A DNA stretch of 64,000 bases from Dehalococcoidales bacterium (GCA_041656115.1 JBBAED010000002.1:82403-146402), one strand, 5' to 3'; positions 7,690 through 57,239 are shown, counted from the first letter of the stretch. Notes: generated from the sequence alone by a model not told the origin. A program made the numbers and translations.

Positions 7690-8343
<654 letters not shown>

Positions 8344-13202: not shown

Positions 13203-13272
13203 TGCTTTGGGGGCTTGATATTTCCGGCCGATACTTTTAATAATAATTTTGCTCAGATATTTTTTTAAATTT

Positions 13273-13306
13273 GGCTCCCGGGCTTAACGGCTTGGGAGCT
13301 TTTTAT
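13273..13306 (+). terminator. Intrinsic terminator after the 12351-13202 gene
   Basis: GGCTCCC-gggcttaacggctt-GGGAGCT followed by TTTTTATTTATT. Confidence 0.6.
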
Positions 13307-13847
13307 TTATTGATGCATTAATTGTGATATCTTTGATGTAACTAAAAAAACGGTTGATAATTTAATGGGTACGATATGTAGTGGCTGGATTGATATTCCA
13401 TACTATTTCCGTTCGATATTACATAATATATATTGTGCGAAGTATTTTGCACAAACGTAACCGTATTGTTTACATAATATACGAGTCATTCCTGAAACAT
13501 CCTCTTTTCTGATTAAGTCGGATAAAACAAAACAGTCGCCGACATTTTGATAACGGGTTGCCCGGGCGCCATTTTATTTTTTTAAATTTTTTGACGGACA
13601 ACCAACGATTTTCTAATTTCTGTTTTTTAACTTCCGTAAAAATTTCTTCCGTTTTCCCGGGGCTTCAAAAACCCACTCTTTTTAGAACCCTTTTAAAACA
13701 AAAATCCGCTAAATCTTAAAATACTACCCCTATTTACATGTTTTAGCCGTTTTGGGGCCTTATTTCATTTCTAAGACAACCAATTGAGAATTTAGTAATT
13801 TTGCATAGTTTTCTATTAACTATGCGAATAAAATGGCTAGATTTTGA

Positions 13848-35969: not shown

Positions 35970-38501
35970 ATGCTTGACAGTGAAACCAGACGAAGAATAG
36001 ATACGGCAAGGGATATTTTAGTCGGCAAAGTGCCCGACCCAAAATCTCAGGTAGAGCAAATTACAATTGCGCTTATCTATAAGTTTATGGATGATATGGA
36101 TGCCGAATCGGAAGAACTGGGCGGAACGCGCACCTTTTTTACCGGCGAGTTTGAAAAATACGGCTGGTCAAAGCTGATGTCACCGGCTGTCGGCGGATAT
36201 GATTTAATCAATCTCTATTCGGATGCCATTCAAAAAATGGATACCAACCCCGGCATTCCGCAGCTTTTTCGGGATATGTTTAAAAATGCCTACCTGCCCT
36301 ATCGCGACCCCGAAACATTAAAGAGCTTTTTAAAAATAATTAACGATTTTGAATACGACCATTCCGAACGCTTGGGAGATGCCTTTGAATATTTGCTATC
36401 GATTTTAGGCAGTCAGGGTGATGCCGGGCAATTCCGTACCCCGCGCCATATCATTGATTTTATGGTTGAGGTTATCGACCCCAAAAAGGATGACGTTATT
36501 ATCGACCCTGCCTGCGGTACCGCCGGTTTTCTGATTTCCGCCTATAAACATATTATCAGGTATAATTCATCCAACTTTAAGCCCGATGAATATAAAATTG
36601 AATTCGGAGGCACCAACGGTCGTTTTAAAGGCGATAAACTATCAACCGACGAACGCAAAAAATTAGCCGATAACATTAAGGGTTATGATATTTCGCCCGA
36701 TATGGTCAGGCTCTCTTTGGTCAATATGTACCTGCACGGTTTCCCCGAACCGCATATTTACGAATACGATACGCTCACCAGTGAAGAGCGCTGGAATGAG
36801 TATGCCGATGTTATAATGGCAAACCCCCCGTTTATGTCTCCGAAAGGCGGCATCAAACCGCATAAACGATTCTCAATACAGGCAAACCGCTCCGAAGTGC
36901 TTTTTGTGGATTATATTGCCGAACATTTAAAACCGAACGGCAGAGCTGCCGTAATTGTCCCCGAAGGGATTGTATTTCAAACGGCCAATGCGTACAAAAC
37001 GCTTCGAAAATACCTTGTTGACGATGGCATTCTTTTTGCTGTAATTTCATTGCCGGCAGGCGTATTTAACCCATATTCCGGCGTTAAAACAAGCATTTTG
37101 CTTTTTGATAAAACCGTAGCGAAGCAAAGGGATGAAATACTGTTTGTAAAAATCAATAACGACGGTTATAGCCTTGGCGCACAGAGAAAAGAAATCGAAG
37201 GCAGCGATATTCCGGAAGTTGTAAATATTATTAAGGATTACAAGGAAGGAAAAGACGTTCCCGATAACGCGCTCACAACAACAGCAACCAAAAAAGATAT
37301 CGCCAAACAGGATTATATTTTAGTTGGAGACAGATATAGAGAAGCTGAGGTCTCCAATGCTGATTACTCGACTGTTGGACTCGGTGAAGTTTGCGAGATA
37401 CTTGCCGGAAATTCCGCTCCACAGGATAAGGAATTATTTACAAATGGCATTTATCCCTTTTTTAGAACAGCGGATGTTGGAATGGTTCACCTTTCTGATA
37501 ATCTTGTCAGCTCAAAGGATTATTTAAATGATGCAGGAATTAGTGGATTAAAGCTATTCCCTAAAGGTACGATATTGTTTCCAAAGAGCGGAGCCTCAAC
37601 TTTTCTAAACCACCGTGCAATCTTAGGCGTCGATGGGTATGTTTCAAGCCATTTAGCTTGCATTATTTGTGATGCCAATAAAATAAATAATAAATACCTG
37701 TACCATGCCCTTACAAATATTGATGCTAGAACACTAACCGCAGACCAAGCTTATCCATCACTTAATTTGAAGCAAATAAGCGGAATAAAAATCCCCCTCC
37801 CCCCGCTACCCGTTCAGCAAGAAATCGTGGCGGAAATCGAAAGCTATCAAAAGATTATTGACGGCGCAAAACAGGTTGTGGATAACTACAAGCCTGTCAT
37901 TAAGGTTGACCCCGATTGGGAGATTGTGAAGTTAGGCGATATATGTGAACTAAACCCCAAAAAATCTGAATTAAGAGACTTATCGAGCACGACAGAAGTG
38001 TCGTTTGTTCCAATGGCCAATGTTAATGAGCACGAAATGTTCTTTTTACCCAAAGAAACAAAGCAGCTTTCAGAAGTTTATTCAGGATACACATATTTTA
38101 GGAATAATGATGTGTTGTTAGCAAAAGTGACACCTTGTTTTGAAAATGGGAAAGCCGGAATAGCAAAAAACTTGAATAACGGTGTCGGCTTTGGCTCAAG
38201 TGAATTTTATGTATTAAGAGCATTTTCAGAAACGGTCTTGCCAGACATGATTTACTACACAATTAACAGTTCTGATTTCTTGTTAAAAGGGAAGGATAAC
38301 ATGACAGGAACTGGAGGTTTGCAACGATTAACTAAAGACTTTGTCATGAATTATTTATTACGCCTACCATGCTTAGATATCCAGCAAAAAATCGTTGCTC
38401 AAATCGAAAAAGAGCAGGAGTTAGTCAATTCCAACAAACAACTAACTGAAATCTACGAACAAAAAATCAAGGATAAAATCGCCGAAGTCTGGGGCGAGTA
38501 A
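35970..38501 (+). CDS. Type I R-M methyltransferase fused to a specificity subunit (HsdM-HsdS single polypeptide)
   Basis: 843 aa. HsdM N-terminal domain. AdoMet motif I IIDPACGTAGFL and catalytic motif IV NPPFMS (N6-adenine class). From about nt 37360 there are two target-recognition domains separated and followed by conserved helical spacers (IPLPPLPVQQEIVAEIESYQKIID...; LRLPCLDIQQKIVAQIEKEQELV...). Confidence 0.85.
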   Translation: MLDSETRRRIDTARDILVGKVPDPKSQVEQITIALIYKFMDDMDAESEELGGTRTFFTGEFEKYGWSKLMSPAVGGYDLINLYSDAIQKMDTNPGIPQLFRDMFKNAYLPYRDPETLKSFLKIINDFEYDHSERLGDAFEYLLSILGSQGDAGQFRTPRHIIDFMVEVIDPKKDDVIIDPACGTAGFLISAYKHIIRYNSSNFKPDEYKIEFGGTNGRFKGDKLSTDERKKLADNIKGYDISPDMVRLSLVNMYLHGFPEPHIYEYDTLTSEERWNEYADVIMANPPFMSPKGGIKPHKRFSIQANRSEVLFVDYIAEHLKPNGRAAVIVPEGIVFQTANAYKTLRKYLVDDGILFAVISLPAGVFNPYSGVKTSILLFDKTVAKQRDEILFVKINNDGYSLGAQRKEIEGSDIPEVVNIIKDYKEGKDVPDNALTTTATKKDIAKQDYILVGDRYREAEVSNADYSTVGLGEVCEILAGNSAPQDKELFTNGIYPFFRTADVGMVHLSDNLVSSKDYLNDAGISGLKLFPKGTILFPKSGASTFLNHRAILGVDGYVSSHLACIICDANKINNKYLYHALTNIDARTLTADQAYPSLNLKQISGIKIPLPPLPVQQEIVAEIESYQKIIDGAKQVVDNYKPVIKVDPDWEIVKLGDICELNPKKSELRDLSSTTEVSFVPMANVNEHEMFFLPKETKQLSEVYSGYTYFRNNDVLLAKVTPCFENGKAGIAKNLNNGVGFGSSEFYVLRAFSETVLPDMIYYTINSSDFLLKGKDNMTGTGGLQRLTKDFVMNYLLRLPCLDIQQKIVAQIEKEQELVNSNKQLTEIYEQKIKDKIAEVWGE

Positions 38502-41710: not shown

Positions 41711-43501
41711 TTATAACCCGGCGGTTAGCGCCACGGCAAGGAAAACAGAGCCGAATACAATCGCCAAAATAATAACAACCATATACAACACAAATTCCGA
41801 CTGTGTCAGTTTTTTGACTATCTTTTTTAAGAGTGCTTCCTCTGCTTTAGCCAATGCCTCATCAGCCGCTTTTTGAGCAGCCATGGCAATTTCTTCCGCC
41901 CGTGCCACTGCTTCTTTGGCGGTTTTATCCGACTCCTCAATTTTTATTCTTGCGATTTCGGCGGCTTTGGTAGTAGCCGTCTGCGAAGCCCTTTGCGCCT
42001 CTTCGGCCTTAGCAAAAGCCTGCGCTACGGCTGAGGATACGGCTGCAGCCAAAGCTTTGTCAGACTCGATATCGGCTTGTTCCGCCTTTACGGCGATATC
42101 GCCCGCTAATTTGGCAGCCATCGCAGCCGCTTCGGTGGCGTCTTTACCTGCCCGCGCCGTACTTTCCGCCGATTCTCCCGAAACATTGGCTGATGCTTCC
42201 GTTGCCTCTCTTCCGGCAATCGCGGCAAGTTCCCCTTTTCTGGCTACTTCTTGGGCCAAACGAGCCGCGCTAAGTGCGGCTTTCTTGGCTTCTCTGCCCG
42301 CTTCATCGGCTTTTTTGGCTGTTTCAATCGTGCTTTCTTTTTCAGCCTTTTCGGCCGCTTGTTTGGCAAGCGCTAATTTTTCATCCGCAATTTTCGATGC
42401 TATTTCAGCTTCTCCGATAGAACTTAAAACAGCGTCTTTGGCAATAATTGCCGCCTCTTTGGCTCTGCCGGCAACCTGTTCGGCAAGCGCGTTGATTGCC
42501 GCCGCTAAAGCCGTATCTCCCGCGGAATCGGCGTATTCGGCATTTTGGTTGGTTTCATCAACTATCGCCAGCGCCTTAGCGGCCGCCTCTTTGGCATCTT
42601 TCCCCGACTCGTCAATCCTCTCAGCCAAAACGCCTGAAATGCGGGTTGCGGCAATAATTGCGGCATCGCCTGCTATATCTGCCAGTTCACTTTTTCTGGC
42701 TGTTTCGTCCGATAACCTAAACGCAACGGCTGCCGCCTTTTTGGCTTCTCTTCCGGCATCGTCTGCCTTTCTTGCCGATTCGGCATCTTTGTTGCTGTTT
42801 GCCTCGTCAGCTGCGGTTTCGGCTCGTTTAGCCGAATTCAACGCCTGCTTTGAGGCCGCAAATGAGGCTTCGGTGGATCGCTCAAGAGCTTCTTTGGCAA
42901 GGAGTGCCGCATCTTCCGCCCGGATTGCGGCATCTTCGGCAGCCCTCATCGCCGACTGAGCGACTTCGGTAGCTGCTTGAGCAACTTCATTGGATTTAAC
43001 GGTGGCTTCCTCTGCAGCATATTGGGCGGCTCTGGCAATATCTTCCGCCCGGAGGGCAGCCTCTTCCGCTCTGGCAGCCGCCTCTTCGGCAGCTCTGCTG
43101 GCGGCATCCGCCGCTTCTTTAGCTTTTTTCTCGGCATTTTCGGCATCGCTAATCGCCGCTTGTGCGATACTCTCGGCTCTGGCAGCCGCTTCGCCTGCGG
43201 CTAAAGTTGCCTTTTGTGCAGCTGTTACCCCGGCTTTACGGGCTTCTTCCGCCCTCTTTTCCGCTTCACCGGAAGCCGTTGTAGCTAATATTGCAGCCTC
43301 ATTTGCCTTTTTGGAAGCATCTTCCGCTCGTCTGGCGGCGTCAATGGCAGCTTTAATATTAGCGTCCATTTCATCCAGAATTACCGGAAGGGGTTTGGTC
43401 AGAATTTTGGGGGCGGGGGGTAGAGCTTCAACAGGAACAGATTCTCTTTTTAAATCTTCGTTTTGTATAGGTGCCTCCTTTGATTGCATAGAATCATTCA
43501 A
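41711..43501 (-). CDS. Tail-anchored Ala/Glu/Lys-rich repetitive alpha-helical protein (hypothetical)
   Basis: 596 aa. TTG start with AAGGAG upstream. N-terminal Pro-containing segment, then about 500 aa of A/E/K/R-rich helical sequence with internal repeats of roughly 150 aa (KADDAGREAKKAAAVAFRLSDETARKSELADIAGDA... vs KADEAGREAKKAALSAARLAQEVARKGELAAIAGRE...). A single C-terminal TM helix (FVLYMVVIILAIVFGSVFLAVALTAGL) sits at the very end. Confidence 0.65.
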   Translation of the reverse strand: MNDSMQSKEAPIQNEDLKRESVPVEALPPAPKILTKPLPVILDEMDANIKAAIDAARRAEDASKKANEAAILATTASGEAEKRAEEARKAGVTAAQKATLAAGEAAARAESIAQAAISDAENAEKKAKEAADAASRAAEEAAARAEEAALRAEDIARAAQYAAEEATVKSNEVAQAATEVAQSAMRAAEDAAIRAEDAALLAKEALERSTEASFAASKQALNSAKRAETAADEANSNKDAESARKADDAGREAKKAAAVAFRLSDETARKSELADIAGDAAIIAATRISGVLAERIDESGKDAKEAAAKALAIVDETNQNAEYADSAGDTALAAAINALAEQVAGRAKEAAIIAKDAVLSSIGEAEIASKIADEKLALAKQAAEKAEKESTIETAKKADEAGREAKKAALSAARLAQEVARKGELAAIAGREATEASANVSGESAESTARAGKDATEAAAMAAKLAGDIAVKAEQADIESDKALAAAVSSAVAQAFAKAEEAQRASQTATTKAAEIARIKIEESDKTAKEAVARAEEIAMAAQKAADEALAKAEEALLKKIVKKLTQSEFVLYMVVIILAIVFGSVFLAVALTAGL

Positions 43502-46158: not shown

Positions 46159-46323
46159 CGCACTCCACCCTCGTATCTAATTTTAAACGGCGGTTACAAA
46201 TGTGTCAAGATTTTTTATTGATTACTATAATAAGCTAAATAACAGCCCGACAAGCGAGGTAAAAGTTAAGAAAACGCCCTGACCGTATAGTCGGGGCATT
46301 ATAAAAAAAACTTTTTGCGGTTT

Positions 46324-46365
46324 AAAAAAGAAGCTACCGTCAAGATTACCTGGCGGTAGCTTTTA
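46324..46365 (-). terminator. Intrinsic terminator after the kinase / TPR-like operon
   Basis: Minus strand: AGCTACCG-ccaggtaatcttga-CGGTAGCT followed by TCTTTTTT. Confidence 0.55.
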
Positions 46366-46504
46366 AAACTCAAATTCGCGTGGCAGACGACATTAAACGA
46401 CAGCAGGTCGGATTGCACAAGCACCATTACCGAAAAGCACGGCTCTGTTTACGGAACGCCTGCAATTCGGCCGATTTTACGCAAAAAGAAAAAGCGATGA
46501 GTAT

Positions 46505-46921
46505 TTAGGCAGCTGCTTCTTTAGCGGCGGCAACTTTGACCCTTTGCAGGTCTACCATTTCTTGCCCAAATTCACATGTCTTACAATCATAAAGTCGGCT
46601 GCAAACCCTGCTGGAAACTTCTCCTTTGGCACTGTACATACAATACCTCTGTGAACCGGGATGGTCTTTTAAATCTTTGATTTTCGGATTGGGGACTTTC
46701 TTAGTCAGTAAACCCTTTTCTCCATCCAAAGCTTCCTGCGCTTTTCTGAGCCAAATTCTGGCGTCGATATTATCGGGAGCAACATTCAATATTGAACCAA
46801 ACTCCTTAATCCCCTCTTCGTATTTGGCATTTTCATAGTGTTCTTTGCCTAACTTCATATGTGCAGGAACGTCCTCAGGATTGATGGCAATAAAATCCAA
46901 TGTTTTCATAATTTCCCCCAT
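46505..46921 (-). CDS. Hypothetical TPR-like / Cys-containing small protein
   Basis: 138 aa. The N-terminal half has a TPR-like helix pair (HMKLGKEHYENAKYEEGIKEFGSILNVAPDNIDARIWL). The C-terminal half has four Cys (CMYS...VCSRLYDCKTCE). Starts 42 nt after the kinase stop. Confidence 0.5.
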   Translation of the reverse strand: MGEIMKTLDFIAINPEDVPAHMKLGKEHYENAKYEEGIKEFGSILNVAPDNIDARIWLRKAQEALDGEKGLLTKKVPNPKIKDLKDHPGSQRYCMYSAKGEVSSRVCSRLYDCKTCEFGQEMVDLQRVKVAAAKEAAA

Positions 46922-46962
46922 ATTATTTATATTATATTTTAACCGTTACCAAGGATAGCAGT

Positions 46963-48915
46963 CTAATTTTCTTCGTGATTATGACTAACCGGTAAAGACA
47001 CTCTAAAGGTAGTGCCTTCACCCTCTTTACTTTGTATCTCTATTTTCCCGTTGTGGCGTTGGATAATACCGTAAGATATCGCTAAACCCAACCCCACCCC
47101 CTTTTGGTCTTTTTTAGTCGAAAAGAAGGGGGTAAAAAGTTTCTTCATATTTTCCGGGGATATCCCAACCCCCGTATCATTTACCTCAACCAGCACTTGG
47201 TCATCTATCGGTAATGTGCGAATAGTTAAAATCCCACCGTCGGGCATAGCCTGAATTGCATTCATTATCAGATTAGTGCAAACCTGTTGAATTTGCCCGA
47301 AATCGGCAACAATCTTCGGCAAATCCGCCGAAAGTTCTTTTATCACTTTTATATTTTGTATTTCTGCCGAGTGGATACCAAGATCGTAACTTCTATCAAT
47401 AATTTCATTGACATCCACTTCCCAAAATTCGGGAACCGATTGCCTGGAAAAATCAAGCAAACTTCTAACCAACTTAGTGCTGCGATTGAGCTCAGTTTCC
47501 ATTTTGGAAAGGTAATCAAGAGCAACATCAATACTGTAATTACCGCTCTTGAGTTTTCTGGACATAAGCTGAGTATAGATTAGAACACCCGATAACGGGT
47601 TGTTAATCTCATGGGCGACAGAGGCCGCCAACTGCCCCAGTGAAGTCATTTTTTCGGCTTGGATTAAACCCTCCTGCGTTTCTTGCATGTTTTTATGCAA
47701 ATACGGCCAACACATTTCAATTTCAGCCAACTTATCGCAAACGGCGATTGCCAGCTCGCGACAAGTGCTGTACCCGCAAGCGCCGCAATTAAATTGCTCT
47801 TCGGGGTTGTTTCTGTTAATTTTATTTAAGACGGCTTCAATTTCTGCCTCACTCGGAAGGACTATCCTACCATTTTGATTTGTAAATTGTCGGGATAAGT
47901 CAATGTCGGCATATTCTTTAATGTCTTGCTCGGTTTTTTCCGGTTGCGATGTTTTAACGGCATAGCGAGCAACAAGTTCCTCGCGCCTGTAAATACTTAA
48001 ACCGTTATCTATCACCGGCCCGCTTACACACCCATGGCAAAAATAAAGGTTAATTAATTTGGTATTTATTTTGCCTAAGGCAAACTCCTTAAGAATTTTG
48101 CTAACAGCCCCTCGACCGTTAGCGTTAATAACCTCGCTTTTAAGAATATCATCGGATAATCCCGCCAGTTTTGCCAAGCCACCTGAAACAGACATTAACC
48201 TCCCCAAATTGGGTGTCGGCCCGTCAAATTCGGATGAAGCCTCATCTTCAGGAATAATTTCTTTGGTTGCAAACATTTCTTTAAGCTCGGCAAAAGTTAA
48301 AACCGCATCAATCACACCGATATTACCGGGCTTACGCGCCTCATCTTTTTTAGCCACACATGGTCCGATAAAAACAACTTTAGCAGATTTATTGTAGCGA
48401 TTTTTAATCAATCTGCCGGTTGCAATGGTCGGTGACACAATGTGTGCCATGTGGTCGATTAGGTCGGGATAGTACTTTTCAACAAAATTTACGACAGCCG
48501 GACAATTCGAAGAAATAATCGGTCTATCCGTTTGTGTAACGATTAATTTCTTATATTCCCTGCCTATTAACTCAGCCCCGAAAGAATCCTCCATCACTTC
48601 GTTAAAACCAAGTTTTTTAAGTGCCGACACCAAACTGCCCGGCTCGGCCTCGGGCATTGCCGCAGGAAAAGATGAGGAAACTACCGCTATCAAGTGATTA
48701 TCCTTGTTACTTAGCAACTGCCATACCAAATCAATATCACTCTCTACCTTTTTTGCACCGGTAGCACAAACCTTTAAGCAGCTTCCACAGACAATGCAAC
48801 GCTCCTGTATTACTTGCGCTAAAAGATCTTCTACTTTAATCGCTTTAACAGGACAGCTGCGTATACAAGCATAACAGCTTTTGCACTTATCTTTTTCTGT
48901 GTATATAATGCTCAT
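46963..48915 (-). CDS. Sensor histidine kinase with an [FeFe]-hydrogenase-like (HydS-type) Fe-S sensory module
   Basis: 650 aa. Two 4Fe-4S ferredoxin motifs (C11xxC14xxC17xxxC21P; C40xxC43xxC46xxxC50). Fe-hydrogenase large-subunit-like domain with H-cluster-type motifs SSNC138P, GPC186VAKKDE, FC293HGC296VSGP. CGACGYSTC Fe-S motif. HisKA H-box SVAH435EINNPLSG. HATPase (DTGVGI, GVGLGL). No TM segment. Confidence 0.8.
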   Translation of the reverse strand: MSIIYTEKDKCKSCYACIRSCPVKAIKVEDLLAQVIQERCIVCGSCLKVCATGAKKVESDIDLVWQLLSNKDNHLIAVVSSSFPAAMPEAEPGSLVSALKKLGFNEVMEDSFGAELIGREYKKLIVTQTDRPIISSNCPAVVNFVEKYYPDLIDHMAHIVSPTIATGRLIKNRYNKSAKVVFIGPCVAKKDEARKPGNIGVIDAVLTFAELKEMFATKEIIPEDEASSEFDGPTPNLGRLMSVSGGLAKLAGLSDDILKSEVINANGRGAVSKILKEFALGKINTKLINLYFCHGCVSGPVIDNGLSIYRREELVARYAVKTSQPEKTEQDIKEYADIDLSRQFTNQNGRIVLPSEAEIEAVLNKINRNNPEEQFNCGACGYSTCRELAIAVCDKLAEIEMCWPYLHKNMQETQEGLIQAEKMTSLGQLAASVAHEINNPLSGVLIYTQLMSRKLKSGNYSIDVALDYLSKMETELNRSTKLVRSLLDFSRQSVPEFWEVDVNEIIDRSYDLGIHSAEIQNIKVIKELSADLPKIVADFGQIQQVCTNLIMNAIQAMPDGGILTIRTLPIDDQVLVEVNDTGVGISPENMKKLFTPFFSTKKDQKGVGLGLAISYGIIQRHNGKIEIQSKEGEGTTFRVSLPVSHNHEEN

Positions 48916-49191
48916 TTATGTAATACTCCGGCAAGCTTTTAAATTTGAAGGTAAGATGCTTGCCGCTTAACTTCGTTGGTTTTTAAAATCAAGAAACAGG
49001 CGCCCTGCAAAAGGCAGTACCTTTAGCGGCTGCCTTAGTGTTACAGGTTTTGCAGTCCGATAAATTAATTCTTTGTAACGGTATCATCATTTACAACCGC
49101 CCAATACAGAGTAATTCCTATCTTTAAATTGACTCAAAACCTATTTTTTATATCCGAATTGATGTGTTAACCCAAACTTATAACGTAAAGC

Positions 49192-49653
49192 CTAAGAAAC
49201 AGTATTTACTTCTTTTAATATCATATCGACAGCTAAAGGGATAGCCGCTTTGACATTCGGTGTGCACTCCTCGGTTAATGTTCTGACATCGGCCGCTTCG
49301 ATTCCGATAATATCTATCTGTGCCGGCATTTCCAGCCCCAGTCTCCTGCCAAGTTCAATCGCGGCAATAACACCGATATCATGGCTTGAAGTAGTATGGC
49401 AGGTATTATCGAACTCTTCCGGAGTCAAGCGATAGATACTACCGGGTTTACCGTCTTCTGTCGTAATGGCATCGACAATAATAGCCCGGTCGTAACCTAC
49501 CAAATAATCAAGCAAGCTAATGCCCGCTAAGCTAACCTCATCTAAGGCAACATCTGGATTGGATACCCTACCCTCAAGCTCTTTAATAACCTTTAATCCG
49601 GCGCTATCATCGCTCAGATAAGGGTTACCCAATCCTAAAATTAATGTCTTCAA
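49192..49653 (-). CDS. [NiFe]-hydrogenase maturation endopeptidase (HyaD/FrhD family)
   Basis: 153 aa. LILGLGNPYLSDDSAG...IIVDA...SSHDIG metal-ligand pattern (D16, D62, H93-like). Confidence 0.85.
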   Translation of the reverse strand: MKTLILGLGNPYLSDDSAGLKVIKELEGRVSNPDVALDEVSLAGISLLDYLVGYDRAIIVDAITTEDGKPGSIYRLTPEEFDNTCHTTSSHDIGVIAAIELGRRLGLEMPAQIDIIGIEAADVRTLTEECTPNVKAAIPLAVDMILKEVNTVS

Positions 49654-49666
49654 AATATTATGTAAT

Positions 49667-51124
49667 CTATTCCCAGCTTTTTACTATTTGTTTTTTATTG
49701 TCGTAAACATACATCGGCATCGCCGGATGTCCGGGTAAGTTATGACTGGCACAAGCCAAACATAAATCGTAGGGACGCCAAGCCATCTCGATTCGGTTTA
49801 ACAAACCTTCGGTTATTTCTTTACCCGGCTGAATTAAGGCTTGTGCAGCCTTGTTAACCGACATATTAACCGCAGCCCCGTTATTTACAGTTGCCACAAT
49901 TAAGTTGGCTTTCTTGATAACGGCATTTTCATCGGTGGTATAGTGATGAATCAAAGTGCCTCTGGGTGCCTCAACGATTCCCACGCCTTCACTCGGAGTG
50001 GCGGTCGGTATATTTCTCAAATCATCGCTTGTAATTTCAGGATCCGTACTCAAAGCGAGTAATGTTTCGGCAGCCTGAACAAGTTCAACCAAACGCGCCC
50101 AATGAATAGCCAAGGTATGATGAACCGGTTTTCCGCCCAGCGTATCATACAATTTTTCGTAGGCTTCTTGAGCTAACGGAGTAGCCATACCGTCTGAAGC
50201 GTTTAATCGGGCCATCGGGGCTACACGGAAAACACCGCTGTCATTTCCGTCAACAAAGCCCTTCCATCCCACTTTCTTCAGATACGGGAATTTAATGTAG
50301 CTCCATGGTTCGACATGTTCGGCAATGTGATCAAGGTAATCTTTAGGCTCAAATTTAGCAAACTCTTTGCCGTCGGGATCGACTACCCTTACCATACCGT
50401 CGTAAAAACTTACCTTATTATTTTCATCAACCAAGCCCATTGAATAGGTTCTATGGGTATAAGCATCGCTTACAATCATATCAACATATTCTTTGTTGGC
50501 AAGGACGATATCATCAAAAACCTTCAGCGACAATTTGCCGAATTCAATACAATCACGAGCAATTTGCTCTATTTGCTGACGCTCTTCTTCATTAAGGCCT
50601 CTGCTAACACCACCGGGCAGTGCAAAAACCGGATGAATGGCCCTGCCTGCCAACATTTCAATAACATGATGGCATTTTTTACGGGTATTAATAACCGCCC
50701 CGCCCAATTCCAGACCTACTTTACCGATAACACCGATAATATTGCGTTCGGCGACAGGCGCTTCCGGACCCATAATAAAATCAGGGCCGGCAAGGATATA
50801 AAAATGGGTGGTATGATCGGTTATAAAAAACGCATTATAAACAAGCTCGCGTAACTTACGCGCCGCACTGGTCGGCTGGACTTGAAACAGAGTGTCCAGT
50901 GTTTTAACCGAAGCCATATGATGCGCTTCGGGGCACACCCCACAAATTCTTTGCGTAATTTGCGGCATATCTTCGGCAAGCCTTCCTTCCGAGAACTTTT
51001 CAAATCCGCGCAATTCGGGGACTTGGAAATAACTGTTTTCTACCCTACCCTCATCGTTAAGGAAGATCTCAATTTTTCCGTGCCCTTCAAGCCTCGTAAT
51101 CGGATCAATACTTATTTTTTTCAT
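49667..51124 (-). CDS. mvhA: [NiFe]-hydrogenase large subunit, Mvh/group-3c-like
   Basis: 485 aa. N-terminal RLEGHGKIEI and RICGVCPEAHH (L1). C-terminal DLCLACASH (L2), followed by a 24-aa extension for protease cleavage. Clustered with mvhG, mvhD and hdrABC. Confidence 0.9.
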   Translation of the reverse strand: MKKISIDPITRLEGHGKIEIFLNDEGRVENSYFQVPELRGFEKFSEGRLAEDMPQITQRICGVCPEAHHMASVKTLDTLFQVQPTSAARKLRELVYNAFFITDHTTHFYILAGPDFIMGPEAPVAERNIIGVIGKVGLELGGAVINTRKKCHHVIEMLAGRAIHPVFALPGGVSRGLNEEERQQIEQIARDCIEFGKLSLKVFDDIVLANKEYVDMIVSDAYTHRTYSMGLVDENNKVSFYDGMVRVVDPDGKEFAKFEPKDYLDHIAEHVEPWSYIKFPYLKKVGWKGFVDGNDSGVFRVAPMARLNASDGMATPLAQEAYEKLYDTLGGKPVHHTLAIHWARLVELVQAAETLLALSTDPEITSDDLRNIPTATPSEGVGIVEAPRGTLIHHYTTDENAVIKKANLIVATVNNGAAVNMSVNKAAQALIQPGKEITEGLLNRIEMAWRPYDLCLACASHNLPGHPAMPMYVYDNKKQIVKSWE

Positions 51125-52092
51125 TAAACTCTGGCCCTCCTTAACACAGAATCAGGTAGACTGTAACGATAGAATGTCCCCGCAGGATCCCTGACACCTT
51201 CGGCAATCTTTGCGATTTCTTCAGGATCGTTTGAATCAATAACGGAAGCAATTGCATTCATAAAGTGCGCACCTTGGTCAATTACACCTTCAACGGGTCC
51301 GTAACAGCCGGTACACGGCATCCCCGCCTTGGGACATTTGGCTTCGCAACCGCCCCTGGTAGCGACACCGGCACAAGGTAACCCCTGTTCCAAAAGGCAT
51401 ATCTCGGGGTCGGCAACAATTTCGTAAGGCCTGTAAAATTTCTTAACCTTTTTAACATCACGCTTACGCGGGCATTCATCGCAAACCGCTTTGGCACTGC
51501 TTGTAATTACAGAGCCAACGGGGGGCAACTGGCCGCTGATTAATGCTTCTAAGGCCATCCACGTTGTTTCGGCTTCGGGAGGACAACCGGGAATAATATA
51601 TTCAACCGGAATCGTCTGAGCAAGTGTTTTAACGGTATTATACAATTCCGGTAATCTCAACTCGCCTTCCGGCGCCTGATAAGTCGTTTGGGGAAGAATT
51701 TTATTGGGATTATCGGTGGAAGGGGTTTCCAAAAAGGCCCTTTCCAAAATCATATCACGATTATACAGATTGGCTAAGCCCGGAATACCACCCTGATATG
51801 CACAGGCGCCAAAAGCAATCATTACTTTTGATTTTCGCCTCAGCAATTTAGCCATATGCTCCTGCTCGGTTGAGCGGATTGAACCGTTGAAAAGACAGAC
51901 GTCAATGCTTTTATCTTCCATTGCCTCAACGTCTTTATATTTAACGTCCATTGCCACCGGCCAAAAAACGATATCCACCGCCTCGATGAGTTTTAACAAA
52001 TTCTCAGCGATTTCAAGAGTGCCGATTTCACAACCGCCACAACTGGCTGCCCAATATAAAGCAACTTTTGGTTTAGCCATTATCTCCTCCAT
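51124..52092 (-). CDS. mvhG: [NiFe]-hydrogenase small subunit, MvhG-like
   Basis: 322 aa. Proximal-cluster motif AASCGGCEI...GACA...GCPP. Additional C-terminal Cys clusters (CDECPRK, CAGVATRGGCEAKCP, CTGCYGP). Confidence 0.85.
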   Translation of the reverse strand: MEEIMAKPKVALYWAASCGGCEIGTLEIAENLLKLIEAVDIVFWPVAMDVKYKDVEAMEDKSIDVCLFNGSIRSTEQEHMAKLLRRKSKVMIAFGACAYQGGIPGLANLYNRDMILERAFLETPSTDNPNKILPQTTYQAPEGELRLPELYNTVKTLAQTIPVEYIIPGCPPEAETTWMALEALISGQLPPVGSVITSSAKAVCDECPRKRDVKKVKKFYRPYEIVADPEICLLEQGLPCAGVATRGGCEAKCPKAGMPCTGCYGPVEGVIDQGAHFMNAIASVIDSNDPEEIAKIAEGVRDPAGTFYRYSLPDSVLRRARV

Positions 52093-52492
52093 CTCTGGGG
52101 AAAGGCCCCAATTTTTTAATTTTTTCAGTCATATCTTTTATAATCTCGGCAAACTTATCGCCTTCGGAAGCGGCGACCCAGTCAAGATGAATGCGATCGC
52201 TTTCGATTCCCATTTGTTCGGTTAACCTCTTTAGCATTTCCATGCGGCGCATTGTTTTTAGGTTACCCGAGTTATAATGGCAATCACCGGGGTGACATCC
52301 GAGTATAGCCACACCATCGGCTCCCGATTCCAGTGCTTTCAATATAAAAACCGGATCCACTCTTCCGCTGCACATTACCCTTACTATTCTGATGTTTGCA
52401 GGATACTTCTTTCTTGAAGTCCCCGCCAGGTCAGCCCCGGAATAGGAGCACCAGTTGCAGAGGATTCCCAGTATTTTAGGTTCAAAACTCAT
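52073..52492 (-). CDS. mvhD: Methyl-viologen-reducing hydrogenase delta subunit (MvhD)
   Basis: 139 aa. ILGILCNWCSYSGADLAG...VMCSGRVDP...GADGVAILGCHPGDCHY, typical of FlpD/MvhD. Confidence 0.85.
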   Translation of the reverse strand: MSFEPKILGILCNWCSYSGADLAGTSRKKYPANIRIVRVMCSGRVDPVFILKALESGADGVAILGCHPGDCHYNSGNLKTMRRMEMLKRLTEQMGIESDRIHLDWVAASEGDKFAEIIKDMTEKIKKLGPFPRDGGDNG

Positions 52493-55400
52493 GCTAACAC
52501 CCCCTCAATTTCAGCCAAAATCTGCTTGGTGGTAAAGTGATTGCTTGTTATTGCATCGCTGGGACAAGCCGATACACAAACACCACATCCTTTACAAAGG
52601 ACCGGGTTGATTTCGGATACCCGAGCACTTTCGTTATAGCTAATCGCACTGTACGGACACATCGTGTTACAAATACGACATCCGGAGCAAAGGTCCGCAA
52701 TAATTTCCGAAACGGCACCGTCAATCTCAACCTTGTTATTGCTAATCATCGCCAGTGCCCTGGCAGCGGCGGCCGAAGCCTGTGCAACCGTATCGGGGAT
52801 ATCTTTGGGTCCCTGGCAGCACCCGGCAATAAACACGCCGTCGGTCATTGTCGATATCGGATCAAGCTTGGGATGTTTCTCCAAGAAGAACCCGTCGGCT
52901 TTTTTGTTAAGCGACAAAACCTTACCGATTTGTTCGGCACCGTCGTTGGGTTCGATAGCACAGCTCAAGATAACCATATCCACCGGCAGCCTTCTCTTTT
53001 TACGTACCAGCGTATCTTCAACCATAACAACCAATTTGTCTTTTTCTTCGTCAATTTGAGGAATGTTGGTTATTTCAGCCGCACGCCCCCTAACAAACTT
53101 GACACCTTCATCTTGTAATCTCATATAGAATTCTTCGTATCCCAATCCGGGGCAACGCATATCGATGTATAACTGGTAAACTTCCACATCGGGCAGTTTT
53201 TCCTTTAGGAGGTGCGCATACTTGAGAGAGTACATACAACACACGCGCGAGCAATATTTGTGATAATTCTCATCACGGCTTCCCACGCAGTGGAGTATGG
53301 CAACACTCTTCGGTTTTTTACCGTTCTTTTTAACAACAACTCCGTCGGTGGGGCCTGAGGCATTTGAAAGCCTTTCAAATTCAAGACCCGTTAAAACATC
53401 GTCGAATCTTCTGTATCCGTAGGTATACATTACCTCGGGGTCAAATTGTTTAAGACCGGTGGCAACAACAATCGAGCCTATATCAACTTCAATTGTCTGC
53501 TCTCTCATTGAATGATCAATTGCATCCGGTTCACAGGCTTTAAGGCATAACATACATTCTGAACAAACGGAACAGTTCAAACACCTTCCGGCTTCATCAA
53601 TCGCTAATTCATTGTCATAGCCAAGTTCAACTTCATCAAAGTTGCCTTTTCTTTCTGATACGCCTAAGGTCGGCATAACCATTCTGGATTTTGCTTTGAC
53701 TTTGTCTTTATTGACTTCAAACTTCTTCGGCATCTGTTCGGCACGGCCTTCGCGTATATCCTGACCGCTTAAATATCTATCGATACTTTCGGCTGCGGCT
53801 TTTCCGGAAGCCATGGATGCAATCACATCCAACTGTCCGGCAACCACTTCGCCGCCGGCAAACACACCGGAAACATTGCTTTCCAGCGTAACCGGGTCAA
53901 CTTCCAAATAGCCCAATTCGCTAAATGCCATTTCTTTAGGTAAGCTGTCTTTATTAACATCCTGCCACATGGCATTGATTACATTACCGGCTTCAAGAAC
54001 AAACTCTTCGCCTTTTTGTGCCTTTGATTCGTTAACACATTTAACACCGCTTATTTTATCGCCATCGATAATTATCTCTTTAACCGATGTAAGGAACTTA
54101 AATTTAATCCCTTCGTTTTTGGCTTCCTCTACCTCGCTGCATGTAGCGGGGGTTTCGGATTCCGATTTTTTATAAAGGACGGTAACATCTTTGGCGCCCA
54201 ATCTCCAAGCCACTCTGGCCGACTCAACTGCCGTATTACCGCCGCCGACAACAACTACTTTATCGGAAACGACAACATCTTGACCCGAGTTAACTTTCTT
54301 TAAGAAATCCATCGCACCGAAGACATTGGCATTATCCTCACCGGGTACGCCCAATTTACGGTTAACACCGGCACCGGTACCCAAAAAGACTGCCTTGTAT
54401 CCTTGTTTAAACAGGCTTGCAATATCATTAACAGCAGTTCCTGTTTTTATTTCGACGCCTCTTTCTTTAAGATAGTCGATTTCAGTATCAACAATATTTT
54501 CCGGCAATTTAAAGTTGGGGATGCCGTATCGCATCAAGCCACCGGCTTTTTCATCTTTTTCAAAAACGGTAACAGCGTAGCCTTTCTTTAATAAATCGAA
54601 AGCGCAGGCAAGCCCGGAGGGGCCGGAACCGATTACAGCAACCTTTTCGGCCTTGGTTATTTCAAGCGGAGTCGCTTTTTCTCTGCCCATTTTTATTTCA
54701 TAATCGGCAACAAAGCGCTTAAGGTCACGAATGTTAATCCCGTCGTCAACGGTGGTTCGTTCGCATTCGGTTTCACAAGGGTGATTACAAACCCTGCCGA
54801 CAACACCGGCAAGAGGAATTGAATCACGAACCAAATCAAGAGCTTCCTTAAACTGACCCTTTGCAATAAGTGCAACATAGCCGTGGGCATTAACGCCGGC
54901 TGGACAAGCGACTCGGCAAGGGGATATTCCTTTTTTATTGATTACCGCTTTGTTAGGCACGGCATAAGGAGATTGAATATAAGTGGCACTGCGCAGGCTT
55001 AAGCCGACATCAAATTCGTTTTCAACCTTTACGGGACAAACCTTACTGCATTCGTCACAGCCGGTACATTTTGTTTCATCGACATAGCGCGCTTTTCTTT
55101 TTATTTTAGCTTTGAAGTTACCAACAAACCCGGTAACTTCTTCAACTTCACTGTAAGATAACAAGTCAATATTGGGGTGTTGCCCGACGCTGGTCATTTT
55201 GGGGGTGAGAATACAAGCGGAACAGTCTAACGTGGGGAATGTTTTATCAAACATCGCCATATGTCCGCCGATACTCGGCTCCTTCTCTACCAAATAAACC
55301 TTTTTACCGGCATCGGCAATTTCTAAGGCTGTTTGAATACCGGCGATACCGCCGCCGACAACCAAAACATTCGGATTTACCGAAACCTGTTTGCTTTGCA

Positions 55401-55800
55401 GAGGCTCATGATATTGAACACGGCTTACGGCAGCTTCAACCAATGCCTTCGCTTTTTCAGTCGCCATTTCTTTATCCGTATGCACCCAAGAACATTGCTC
55501 ACGAATATTAGCCATCTGGAAATAGTATTGGTTAATCCCGGCATCTTGTACCGCCCGACGGAAAGTCGGTTCATGCATGCGAGGAGAACAAGCAGCTACC
55601 ACTACCCTGTTCAATTTGTTTTCTTTAATATCGTTTTTAATAAGGTTTTGACCGGGGTCGGAACACATATATTTATAATTTCGTGCTACAACTACAGAAC
55701 CTAACCCTTTGGCGTACTCGGTAACTTCTTTGGTGTTGACCGTAGCCGAAATATTGGTTCCGCAGTCGCATATGTATACACCAATCCTTACTTCTTCCAT
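52489..55800 (-). CDS. hdrA: HdrA-like heterodisulfide reductase subunit A carrying an inserted GltD/NfnB-like NAD(P)H:FAD module
   Basis: 1103 aa. HdrA N-domain (VYICDCG...). FAD motif VVGGGIAGIQTALEIA plus TFPTLDCSACILTP. Ferredoxin CTGCDECSKVCP. Residues about 290-735 are a GltD-like block: CPAGVNAHGY...CNHPCETEC, VAVIGSGPSGLACA, AGGLMRYGIPNFKLP, VVVVGGGNTAVE. Then the rest of HdrA follows, with C-terminal 2x[4Fe-4S] (CSGCRICNTMCP, CKGCGVCVSACP). Confidence 0.85.
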   Translation of the reverse strand: MEEVRIGVYICDCGTNISATVNTKEVTEYAKGLGSVVVARNYKYMCSDPGQNLIKNDIKENKLNRVVVAACSPRMHEPTFRRAVQDAGINQYYFQMANIREQCSWVHTDKEMATEKAKALVEAAVSRVQYHEPLQSKQVSVNPNVLVVGGGIAGIQTALEIADAGKKVYLVEKEPSIGGHMAMFDKTFPTLDCSACILTPKMTSVGQHPNIDLLSYSEVEEVTGFVGNFKAKIKRKARYVDETKCTGCDECSKVCPVKVENEFDVGLSLRSATYIQSPYAVPNKAVINKKGISPCRVACPAGVNAHGYVALIAKGQFKEALDLVRDSIPLAGVVGRVCNHPCETECERTTVDDGINIRDLKRFVADYEIKMGREKATPLEITKAEKVAVIGSGPSGLACAFDLLKKGYAVTVFEKDEKAGGLMRYGIPNFKLPENIVDTEIDYLKERGVEIKTGTAVNDIASLFKQGYKAVFLGTGAGVNRKLGVPGEDNANVFGAMDFLKKVNSGQDVVVSDKVVVVGGGNTAVESARVAWRLGAKDVTVLYKKSESETPATCSEVEEAKNEGIKFKFLTSVKEIIIDGDKISGVKCVNESKAQKGEEFVLEAGNVINAMWQDVNKDSLPKEMAFSELGYLEVDPVTLESNVSGVFAGGEVVAGQLDVIASMASGKAAAESIDRYLSGQDIREGRAEQMPKKFEVNKDKVKAKSRMVMPTLGVSERKGNFDEVELGYDNELAIDEAGRCLNCSVCSECMLCLKACEPDAIDHSMREQTIEVDIGSIVVATGLKQFDPEVMYTYGYRRFDDVLTGLEFERLSNASGPTDGVVVKKNGKKPKSVAILHCVGSRDENYHKYCSRVCCMYSLKYAHLLKEKLPDVEVYQLYIDMRCPGLGYEEFYMRLQDEGVKFVRGRAAEITNIPQIDEEKDKLVVMVEDTLVRKKRRLPVDMVILSCAIEPNDGAEQIGKVLSLNKKADGFFLEKHPKLDPISTMTDGVFIAGCCQGPKDIPDTVAQASAAAARALAMISNNKVEIDGAVSEIIADLCSGCRICNTMCPYSAISYNESARVSEINPVLCKGCGVCVSACPSDAITSNHFTTKQILAEIEGVLA

Positions 55801-55815
55801 AATTTACGCTCTCCT

Positions 55816-56682
55816 TTACAGATATTTGGCCAGGATTTTATTCGGTTTGACGATATTTTTATTTAAGCCCAGTTTGTCTTCTTTTAACCCGAGCGCAAGA
55901 CCGATAAGCTGTGTAACAAACAATACCGGCAAATTAAAATTAGTATTGAATTTGCTGTTTACTTTGGCTTGATAGGCATCGAGGTTCATTTGACAAAGAG
56001 GACAAGGGGTAATCATACACTCCGCCCCACTTTCGACGGCGTTTTTAAACAGATCGTACATCAGTTGGAGACAAAGATCCTGCTCCGATATAACAGCCGA
56101 ACCGCCGCAACATTTACATTTGGAGGCGTAAGGGACAGCTATCGCTCCGACAGCCTCAACAATTTCATCCAACGCAATAGGATTTTCCGGATCGTCAAAA
56201 CCAAAACGCGGTCGCACTTCCTGGCACCCGGAATAAGGAGCAACTTTTAATCCGCTTAGGGGTTTTACAACTTTGGCAGCTATTTTCTGCGTTGTCATAT
56301 CGGACATTAAGACTTCAATCAATAACCTGACTTTAACAGAGCCGTTATATTCGAGACCGGCCGTCGCCAAGGCCTGATTGACCTTTGATTTTACCTCAGG
56401 CTTCATCATATGCACTCTGGCTTTGTTAAGGGTTACAAAACAAGAACTGCATGGGGTGACAAGGTCAAGTTTTGTTTTCTCGGCCAGCGCAAGATTACGA
56501 GCTGCGACGGCAATTGCTTCAAGTTCATCCAGCGAACCGTAAGGGGTTGAACCGCAACAGTTCCAATCTTCCAGTTCCTTTAACTCAATACCCAAGGCCT
56601 CCGCAATTGCTCGAGTTGAAATATCCAACCCAACCGCAGTAGCTTCCGATGAACAGCCGGGGAAATAAGTGTAGCTTTTCAT
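55816..56682 (-). CDS. hdrB: Heterodisulfide reductase subunit B (two CCG domains)
   Basis: 288 aa. Two CCG motifs (WNCCGS; CKCCGG) with the accompanying PCxxC patterns. Confidence 0.9.
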   Translation of the reverse strand: MKSYTYFPGCSSEATAVGLDISTRAIAEALGIELKELEDWNCCGSTPYGSLDELEAIAVAARNLALAEKTKLDLVTPCSSCFVTLNKARVHMMKPEVKSKVNQALATAGLEYNGSVKVRLLIEVLMSDMTTQKIAAKVVKPLSGLKVAPYSGCQEVRPRFGFDDPENPIALDEIVEAVGAIAVPYASKCKCCGGSAVISEQDLCLQLMYDLFKNAVESGAECMITPCPLCQMNLDAYQAKVNSKFNTNFNLPVLFVTQLIGLALGLKEDKLGLNKNIVKPNKILAKYL

Positions 56683-57239
56683 TGGTCACCTCTAATTTCA
56701 TTCAGTTTTTTGATAATTAGGTCAAGGTCTTTTTTACCTTTGATTTTCCTGGCCGAAAGCGGCATGCGTCCATGCGACAGAAGTTTTAGTGCCACCGAAG
56801 TCATTCCCAAAGCGGCAAAAGGATTGGTTGAGAGGTAATACCCCAACATCATTCGAAACTCGCTTACCCTGCCATTGCTTTTGATCGACTTCACAAAGTT
56901 GTCGTACACAACCGGTGTTGTTGTGCCTTTTGGCTTGTACCCATGCTTCACCGCCAGCGATTCGAGTGCATGGAACAAACTTGTCGGCTCCACATCTCTG
57001 GGACAACGTACGGTGCAGAAATAGCAAGAAAGACAACGCCACATTGAACTGCTGGAAAGGACTTCGTCGCGCATATCGGCTTTCACCATAGCTATTACTT
57101 CCGAAGGGGTATATTCCCAGATCTCCGCACTCGGACAAGATGCAGTACACGTGCCGCATTGCATGCACATATACACACCCTCGCCGCCGGGAACCTGGCT
57201 AACCTCGCTTGCAAAATCTTTAGCTAGAGTTTTTTCCAT
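56679..57239 (-). CDS. hdrC: Heterodisulfide reductase subunit C
   Basis: 186 aa. CMQCGTCTASCP and CLSCYFCTVRCP ferredoxin motifs. Overlaps the hdrB start by 4 nt. Confidence 0.9.
   Translation of the reverse strand: MEKTLAKDFASEVSQVPGGEGVYMCMQCGTCTASCPSAEIWEYTPSEVIAMVKADMRDEVLSSSSMWRCLSCYFCTVRCPRDVEPTSLFHALESLAVKHGYKPKGTTTPVVYDNFVKSIKSNGRVSEFRMMLGYYLSTNPFAALGMTSVALKLLSHGRMPLSARKIKGKKDLDLIIKKLNEIRGDQ

Follow-up and report, generated by a model that had tools for sequence, protein, structure and literature searches.

A soluble HydS-type sensor histidine kinase beside Mvh/Hdr genes in a Dehalococcoidales genome, probably orphaned by deletion of its sigma-54 cassette

Introduction

When a sensor histidine kinase has no response regulator encoded beside it, does it serve a new pathway, or has it lost its partners? 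The question is raised by a 64,000-nucleotide stretch of a Dehalococcoidales bacterium (GCA_041656115.1, JBBAED010000002.1:82403-146402), the whole of which we call the window. It carries a kinase gene with an [FeFe]-hydrogenase-like sensor module, followed by a small gene for a TPR-like/four-Cys protein and preceded by a co-oriented hdr-mvh-hycI block (Table 1). Signal relay by sensory [FeFe]-hydrogenases is an acknowledged open question (PMC8163306). An initial annotation, made from the sequence alone, had listed the output of this kinase as unknown. Here, we compared the locus with those of its relatives, and consider it likely that the window encodes a cytoplasmic HydS-type kinase that was orphaned by deletion of its cassette and is probably still active.

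Results

Domain architecture of the kinase

As the initial annotation had proposed, Pfam and hydropathy describe a 650-aa kinase without a transmembrane segment, whose N-terminal module combines a ferredoxin-like domain with an Fe-hydrogenase-like domain. A membrane-bound sensor was rejected, since the highest 19-residue Kyte-Doolittle mean was 1.17. The ferredoxin-like domain contains Cys 11/14/17/21 and 40/43/46/50, which vary little or not at all among 130 diverse relatives. The H-domain has the cluster ligands C138, C186, C293, and C296 and retains K189 and E192, all of which are invariant in 44 Dehalococcoidales orthologues, as is S161-P162.

We aligned the motifs SSNCP (135), GPCVAKKDE (184), and FCHGCVSGP (292) with the CpI sequence. 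C138, C186, C293, and C296 correspond to C300, C355, C499, and C503 of CpI, and K189 and E192 to K358 and E361. N137 stands in place of the proton-relay Cys C299, G184 in place of M353, and Y291 in place of M497, so that the cluster Cys and the Asn at the relay position noticed in the initial annotation agree with both the motif positions and the alignment. The third motif reads CxGC, one residue shorter than the CxxGC of group A, a trait common to the whole sensory family. In addition, the A-P-S pocket motif (CpI 230-232, proximal CN ligand), which is kept in 82-94% of diverse relatives and in maturase-linked homologues, is S80-S81-S82 in the window kinase and in every Dehalococcoidia-clade kinase.

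A fourth motif, CGACGYSTC (377), lies before the DHp/HATPase core and its H435, as annotated; it is recognised by PF04060 and by its Cys spacing as part of a C-terminal Cx2Cx4Cx16C cluster. There is no PAS match to Pfam in the window kinase, and the DHp domain comes directly after this cluster. Among the orthologues, H435, E436, N438, and P440 of the DHp domain are invariant. The HATPase_c boxes (N548/N552, D580-G582-G584, F594/F597, and G606-G608-G610) are present in the window kinase and invariant in the 44 orthologues. In NCBIfam, the kinase core is nearest to AtoS and ZraS (223 and 178 bits, respectively), far under the equivalog cut-offs.

The AlphaFold model of the kinase has a mean predicted local distance difference test (pLDDT) score of 72.9, with most of the H-domain above 80. 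Its N-terminal part resembles solved [FeFe]-hydrogenases (8a6t_A, E 9e-18; CpI, root-mean-square deviation 4.4 over 374 columns), and its C-terminal part resembles the ZraS and HK853 kinase cores in Foldseek. A single continuous helix, 403-456, modelled with low confidence, begins just past the last Cys of the C-terminal cluster and runs through H435. Taken together, the missing relay Cys, the replacement of M353 by Gly, and the presence of Cx2Cx4Cx16C support the assignment of the window kinase to the HydS-type, group C-like sensory [FeFe]-hydrogenase modules.

The sensor module belongs to a known class

We searched residues 1-410 against 1.84 billion cluster representatives and obtained 852 at E<=1e-30, the best 150 of which align over nearly the entire module. 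All 70 relatives sampled carry both Fe_hyd_lg_C and PF04060, and they continue into a histidine kinase (24-26), PAS (about 19), a sigma-54 activator ATPase (7), or GGDEF (3). Across diverse relatives, the sensor module forms a unit to which kinase, PAS, sigma-54-activator, or GGDEF outputs are joined. HydDB has an [FeFe] group C1, "histidine kinase-linked (putative)", for which H2 sensing and regulation via the kinase are proposed (PMC5037454). Since this group is already defined and kinase domains occur in 24-26 of the 70 relatives, the architecture is not an unrecognised one. The window kinase is a further member of an already known, biochemically uncharacterised class and not a new system.

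Relatives encode a sigma-54 cassette around the kinase

The window kinase is 100% identical to P0001 from the Dehalococcoidales metagenome-assembled genome (MAG) GCA_964431335.1, where it lies on a 494-kb contig. The gene order of the window recurs in an independent assembly (L002), and is therefore not an assembly artefact. In agreement with the initial annotation, which had found no response regulator nearby, a receiver-domain profile gave no match in any frame of the 64-kb window, while a positive-control receiver scored 92 bits. In 14 related loci a receiver is present beside the kinase; beside the window kinase there is none.

To compare neighbourhoods, we took orthologues at 52-91% identity with 10-kb flanks. 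The pattern used to scan the genome collection lay in the DHp region, and 68 of its 80 loci were generic kinases. A cassette of sigma-54 gene, kinase gene, and NtrC-type activator gene occurs in 14 other Chloroflexota loci (L003, L004, L006, L008-L015, L025, which ends after the kinase, L089, and L093). The sigma-54-like gene is short (272-368 aa) and ends 1-4 bases before the kinase start. The regulator, which consists of a receiver (REC), a sigma-54 interaction ATPase, and a Fis-type helix-turn-helix (HTH), starts 17 bases before the kinase stop. In 12 loci, the next start codon is preceded, at a distance of 45-95 bp, by a near-perfect sigma-54 -24/-12 promoter with the sequence TGGCAAGAAAATTGCA or one very similar. 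The gene served by this promoter has two forms, encoding either a homologue of the small window protein or, in distant relatives, a 338-360-aa protein with a receiver, a TPR-like segment, and two copies of C-x12-C-x5-C-x2-CEF(D/G)Q (L008, L004, L009, L010, L015, and L013). In the closest relatives the operon continues into a [NiFe] hydrogenase whose 777-aa FeS/FAD/NAD subunit starts with a receiver domain, which suggests that an enzyme may be under direct phospho-control.

Several features of these cassettes deserve mention in their own right. In the short sigma-54-like protein (L006:8924-10000, L003:8924-10000, L008:9178-9996, and L004:8893-9999), Pfam sees the DNA-binding domain only, though the N-terminus resembles region I. 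With its own sigma factor, activator, and promoter, the cassette may be the sole sigma-54 regulon of these genomes. The receiver-fused hydrogenase (L006:13836-18192, L089:7928-12284, L093:11861-16226, and L091:10619-13707) has a subunit of 777-782 aa with Fer4_22, FAD/NAD binding, and DHODB Fe-S domains, and resembles group 3b by subunit composition, a likeness by subunits alone. In a complete Dehalococcoidales chromosome (L013:13372-18754), the conserved sigma-54 promoter precedes five genes, encoding REC-TPR, NuoE-like, NuoF-like, receiver-fused Fer2/Fer4 (NuoG N-terminal-like), and LuxR-type regulator proteins. A literature search found no published description of a sensory [FeFe] kinase with a sigma-54 cassette.

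The window locus is a reduced copy of the cassette

The window and L003 align in five colinear blocks, comprising hdr-mvh-hycI, the kinase, the small gene, a Zn-ribbon gene, and LemA-M48. Relative to L003, the window has three gaps, lying exactly at the sigma-54 gene, the regulator, and the hydrogenase operon. Of the 276-bp spacer upstream of the kinase, only the last ~30 bp align with relatives. No remnants of the sigma-54, activator, or hydrogenase genes were found in the window spacers by tblastn and blastn-short.

The junction after the kinase can be read at the base level. It is CACGAAGAAAATTAGACTGCTAT in the window and TGGCAAGAAAATTGCACTGATAT in the relatives at equal distance from the small gene. 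The 19-nt scar AAGAAAATTAGACTGCTAT matches the promoter spacer and -12 part of the relatives, AAGAAAATTGCACTGATAT, at 16 of 19 bases, and since the match lies at equal distance, the promoter spacer and -12 region have survived in the window. In the -12 element, GC has been replaced by AG, which in the window provides the kinase stop codon TAG (46963-46965); the -24 TGGC and the entire activator gene are gone. The deletion plausibly occurred at a short AAGAA repeat, found both at the 3' end of the kinase gene and in the promoter spacer. These comparisons indicate that the window locus would be a reduced copy of the cassette after three separate losses: of the sigma-54 gene, of the activator with the -24 element, and of the receiver-fused [NiFe] operon. 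The kinase looks partnerless because the flanking sigma-54, response regulator, and target genes were deleted in this genome. Thus, instead of an unknown output, the comparison gives an ancestral one, namely an NtrC-type activator with the cassette sigma-54 and a -24/-12 promoter, deleted here.

A second lineage lost the same genes independently

L091 and L092, which come from two different samples, have kinases 91% identical to that of L093; both lack the sigma-54 and regulator genes, and the L093 cassette is full. In L091, the sigma-54 remnant (7757-7997) consists of the first 37 codons, with in-frame stops, joined to the last 19 codons, and the activator remnant (9952-10101) is a 150-bp piece of the ATPase domain. 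The promoter core is lost, and the small gene and the receiver-fused hydrogenase are retained. In a neighbour-joining tree, the window kinase groups with L006, L003, and L089, and L091 groups with L093. Because their kinases fall into different groups, the losses in the window and in L091 are separate events.

The kinase remains conserved

We then looked at the kinase itself. It keeps all of the ~170 positions that are invariant among the 44 orthologues, catalytic boxes included. Its identity to three outgroup kinases is 67.0/71.8/66.8%, compared with 67-69/72-74/67% for kinases of intact cassettes. By these measures the kinase shows no apparent sign of relaxed constraint, and it is probably still active, signalling to a partner encoded elsewhere or not yet recognised.

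Link to Mvh/Hdr

The block upstream of the kinase ends with a HycI-type protease gene (49192-49653), 276 bp from the kinase; both the gap and the gene order agree with the initial annotation, in which the kinase lies downstream of, and co-oriented with, hdrCBA-mvhDGA-protease. An hdr-mvh-hycI block also precedes the cassette in L003, L006, L008, L009, L010, L089, L091, and L093 and in the Clostridia loci L016 and L017, and HdrA-like genes lie near the cassette in L004, L011, L015, and L025. This synteny, recurring across two phyla, in Dehalococcoidia as well as in MAGs of Clostridia, supports a functional link or coordination between the kinase and Mvh/Hdr, and there is good evidence in the gene orders that the family's link would be old.

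The initial annotation had suggested that the kinase controls, or is coordinated with, the bifurcating hydrogenase. The recurring synteny favours coordination. Direct transcriptional control is not shown, because no -24/-12 motif (GG-N10-GC) precedes hdrC in the four loci examined; for the same reason, the data do not support direct control of Mvh/Hdr by sigma-54. The sigma-54 target that can be identified is the gene that follows the regulator. In the hycI-kinase spacer of the window, a hairpin considered as a terminator was no better than in shuffled sequences (z -1.2).

Two further observations concern the block. HdrA (52489-55800, minus strand) has 1103 aa, compared with the ~650-aa methanogen subunit, and its extra Fer4_20 and Pyr_redox_2/NAD-binding matches, found alike in relatives, suggest an inserted GltD-like nucleotide-binding module. 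MvhG and MvhA of L008 share 94-96% identity with their counterparts in L003, L006, and L089, but the L008 kinase only 67-69%; the histories of the hydrogenase genes and of the regulatory cassette seem to differ, through recombination or transfer.

The small TPR-like/four-Cys gene

The small gene is present as the initial annotation had described, with its four Cys, but the annotated reading frame of 138 aa (46505-46921) is probably too long. A GGGGGA ribosome-binding site, the start of the homologues, and the NCBI call agree on ATG at 46909 as the most likely start, giving 134 aa. C90, C103, C109, and C112 are invariant in homologues, and the protein is equivalent to two parts of the 338-360-aa receiver and TPR proteins, their TPR segment and their second Cys motif. 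Nothing significant was found for it in Pfam or NCBIfam. The model has three confident helices (aa 11-64), and the four-Cys part is below pLDDT 50. An invariant P-E-H-x-K-x-G (aa 15-21) opens the first TPR-like helix, also in the receiver-fused forms; it is not a canonical Hpt motif and gave no Pfam Hpt match.

In the window the small gene lies 53 bp past the kinase. Two terminator-like hairpins, each followed by a U-run, are found at 46331-46362 (-18.2 kcal/mol, z -4.1) and 46273-46300 (-14.6 kcal/mol, z -3.9). Given the short distance and the two stable hairpins beyond it, the two genes probably form one transcript. The co-transcription that the initial annotation proposed is therefore probable here, whereas in relatives the small gene has its own sigma-54 promoter.

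Table 1. Coordinates of the kinase locus, its remnants, and the maturase genes of related loci
Feature	Position	Strand	Basis
Soluble HydS-type sensor histidine kinase gene, 650 aa	46963..48915	-	Open reading frame and translation, Pfam, hydropathy, AlphaFold model
Ferredoxin-like domain, two [4Fe-4S] motifs, aa 4-54	48754..48906	-	Pfam Fer4 families
[FeFe]-hydrogenase H-domain, aa 74-300	48016..48696	-	Pfam Fe_hyd_lg_C E 2.6e-50; PDB sequence matches E 1e-25
C-terminal Fe-S motif Cx2Cx4Cx16C (C377, C380, C385, C402), directly before kinase helix	47707..47796	-	Pfam PF04060 FeS (aa 374-403), Cys spacing
DHp/HisKA domain, aa 426-491, phospho-acceptor H435	47443..47640	-	Pfam HisKA
ATP-binding HATPase_c domain, aa 541-644	46984..47295	-	Pfam
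Deletion scar, sigma-54 promoter remnant, 19 nt	46955..46973	-	Alignment with L003, L006, L089, L093
276-bp spacer where relatives have a 272-368-aa sigma-54-like gene	48916..49191	-	Context of L003, L006, L008, L009, L089, L093
Spacer where close relatives have a receiver-fused [NiFe] hydrogenase operon (~4.7 kb)	46159..46504	-	Synteny break relative to L003
134-aa TPR-like/four-Cys protein gene, conserved cassette member	46505..46909	-	Homologues of 60-73% identity
Co-oriented hdrC-hdrB-hdrA-mvhD-mvhG-mvhA-hycI block upstream of kinase	49192..57239	-	Pfam: FlpD, Oxidored_q6, NiFeSe_Hases, HycI, CCG, Fer4, FAD/Pyr_redox
hydG/hydE/hydF	L016:6229-9999; L017:6174-9996; L018:13565-17193; L019:5489-9980 and 13136-14191		

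Discussion

Proposed mechanism

We propose that the kinase reads H2 or cellular redox poise at an H-cluster-type site without the catalytic proton relay. Electrons would pass among this site, the two N-terminal cubanes, and the C-terminal Cx2Cx4Cx16C cluster. As this cluster sits where the helix into the DHp domain begins, its redox state would set the autophosphorylation of H435. In the ancestral cassette, the phosphate would go to the NtrC-type activator encoded just downstream, which together with the short sigma-54 encoded upstream would fire the -24/-12 promoter of the (receiver-)TPR/four-Cys gene and the receiver-fused redox enzymes. What would be left in this genome is the intact kinase and the TPR/four-Cys gene, beside Mvh/Hdr.

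Alternative explanations

Three other accounts of the kinase's present role were weighed. The kinase and the small gene could be non-functional leftovers heading for loss, as every recognisable partner and target in the locus is deleted and the small protein has E16A, F107Y, and Q108D at positions nearly invariant in homologues. We regard this as unlikely: both reading frames are intact, the ~170 invariant kinase residues are kept without rate acceleration, and the second lineage (L091) likewise keeps its kinase after losing sigma-54 and the activator. Moreover, the deletions are not very recent, because no remnant of the deleted genes survives, which disfavours a decaying relic. A comparably small chance is given to a pathway that is intact but dispersed, in which sigma-54 and the activator have relocated and signalling from the kinase proceeds as it does in relatives. 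Full conservation of the kinase is in keeping with relocation, as is the fact that the part of the genome searched was the 64-kb window. Against it, none of the 120 best homologues of the L006 activator lies on the 494-kb contig, and P0283, the one plausible candidate, was rejected because it comes from another MAG, whose cassette is intact. In addition, the sigma-54 promoter at the locus is destroyed, the hydrogenase operon that it served in close relatives is gone, and the L091 lineage shows pseudogenes in place, not relocation. It is likewise doubtful, though conceivable, that the kinase output bypasses transcription and controls enzymes directly. In relatives, the kinase would then phosphorylate the 777-aa REC-FeS-FAD [NiFe] hydrogenase subunit, the REC-NuoG-like protein, and the REC-TPR-four-Cys adaptor; here it would act with the receiver-less TPR/four-Cys protein on Mvh/Hdr. 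Under this proposal, two independent losses of the sigma-54 branch spared the kinase, and therefore enzyme-level control would be the selected function. If true, this would be a new type of two-component kinase output, an [FeFe]-type H2 sensor governing [NiFe] enzymes.

A HydS-type kinase orphaned by deletion remains the reading that we favour, and a number of points weigh against it. No group C1 kinase with biochemical characterisation was found in the literature searched. The helix joining the C-terminal cluster to H435 is of low confidence, with pLDDT below 50 for 413-435. The MAG may be incomplete, and the absence of a partner regulator holds for the window. Neither the 64-kb window nor the 10 kb around any Chloroflexota locus contains hydE, hydF, or hydG, and a literature search found nothing on HydG or HydEFG in Dehalococcoidia. 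The Dehalococcoidales clade has S-S-S where catalytic and maturase-linked proteins have A-P-S. Finally, the most divergent Chloroflexota kinase (L014, 7923-9866) has C293 replaced by His, E192 by Gly, and G184 by Ser; having lost a cluster Cys and the E361 equivalent, it indicates that the H-cluster site can decay in Chloroflexota. The maturase, pocket-motif, and L014 findings all favour a cubane-only sensor, in which the H-domain would hold only [4Fe-4S], without HydEFG, and report ferredoxin/redox or Fe-S status rather than H2, and group C1 proteins of Hydrogenedentota without recognisable H-cluster motifs have been reported (PMC11406978). We consider this possible but clearly the less probable case. 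K189 and E192, whose counterparts K358 and E361 serve the [2Fe] site of CpI, and S161-P162 are invariant in the 44 orthologues, and in three other phyla hydG, hydE, and hydF flank the homologues. These three genes lie directly beside a full-length kinase homologue of 40-44% identity in all four non-Chloroflexota loci (L016-L019), from two Clostridia MAGs, one Elusimicrobium MAG, and one deltaproteobacterial MAG. In L016, where the order is hdrA-mvhDGA-hycI-hydG-hydE-hydF-kinase, they score 533/397/517 bits for hydG/hydE/hydF, well over the NCBIfam equivalog cut-offs, and the kinase is the sole H-domain protein among the genes scanned. The maturase genes flanking the non-Chloroflexota homologues are good evidence for a true H-cluster in this family; for the window protein itself, we put binding of the [2Fe] subcluster in vivo at a little over an even chance. 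That the protein is a catalytic [FeFe]-hydrogenase which happens to be kinase-fused is scarcely credible, even though it has the H-domain fold and cluster ligands: Asn stands at the position of the proton-relay Cys, both M353 and M497 are substituted, the score is under all NCBIfam hydrogenase cut-offs (best 190.6 vs 450), and the similarly changed TmHydS has low activity (PMC10055695).

Comparison with known systems

The members of HydDB group C1 are likewise putative sensory [FeFe]-hydrogenase-like proteins coupled to a histidine kinase, and the module is common to many kinase-fused relatives. That group is defined by sequence clustering; the Dehalococcoidales clade differs by S-S-S for A-P-S, and the window copy has no cognate regulator. 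In the M2e and M2f enzymes (groups D and C, respectively), two N-terminal cubanes are combined with an H-domain that lacks the C299 relay and with a C-terminal Cx2Cx4Cx16C motif (PMC8163306). TmHydS (group C, M2f), in which C299 is changed to Ala, M353 to Gly, and M497 to Ser (PMC10055695, PMC8163306), shares with the window kinase the two N-terminal cubanes, the four-Cys H-domain, the C-terminal four-Cys cluster, and Gly at M353. C299 and M497 are replaced in both proteins, by Ala and Ser in TmHydS and by Asn and Tyr in the window kinase. TmHydS has a PAS domain at its end and a genetic link to a bifurcating [FeFe] hydrogenase, whereas the window kinase has a DHp/CA core, no PAS, and a place beside [NiFe] Mvh-Hdr. 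TamHydS (group D, M2e) shares the cluster complement, Cx2Cx4Cx16C, and the absence of PAS, and its gene is flanked by a kinase-like ATPase (PMC8163306); this kinase-like protein is separate, not fused. As group D has Ser/Thr at M353 and the window kinase has Gly, the latter sides with group C.

The logic of the system is shared with HoxBC-HoxJ-HoxA ([NiFe] group 2b), in which a low-activity hydrogenase acts as H2 sensor and signals through a kinase to an NtrC-family regulator of hydrogenase genes (PMC5037454, PMC8163306). The HoxBC sensor is unrelated ([NiFe] rather than [FeFe]-type) and separate from its kinase, whereas the window sensor and kinase are fused and the regulator is lost. The kinase core is most similar to those of AtoS and ZraS, kinases of the NtrB type, and the relatives of the window kinase likewise pair with a REC-AAA+-HTH activator and a -24/-12 promoter. 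Unlike these kinases, the window sensor is soluble and Fe-S based, and its locus has no activator, sigma-54, or intact promoter.

For the open question of signal relay, this family is a simple system to study: sensor and kinase core form one protein, the relatives hold activator, sigma factor, promoter, and targets in one cassette, and maturase genes are adjacent in other phyla. It also ties a sensor of the [FeFe] type to [NiFe] enzymes, namely Mvh-Hdr and group-3-like hydrogenases, whereas the characterised HydS proteins are tied to [FeFe] enzymes. The window copy mainly illustrates regulatory decay, with a loss that can be traced almost base by base, and carries a lesson for annotation, namely that an "orphan" kinase may represent what is left of a deleted cassette and not a new pathway. 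Of greater biological interest are the relatives' intact cassettes and the repeated survival of the kinase where the transcriptional branch has been lost, a pattern compatible with output at the enzyme level via receiver-fused redox subunits.

Other features of the window

Elsewhere in the window, 41711-43501 (minus strand) encodes a repetitive 596-aa protein, rich in Ala, Glu, and Lys, whose C-terminal segment is hydrophobic and which has no Pfam match on record. The local G+C is 0.50, compared with ~0.42 around it, and a homologous open reading frame follows the M48 peptidase gene in L003. An 843-aa protein with N6 DNA methylase and type I specificity (Methylase_S) domains is encoded at 35970-38501 (plus strand). 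Two long open reading frames, 30452-33136 and 33405-35951, adjoin the methylase gene, and the methylase-specificity region is probably a restriction-modification locus.

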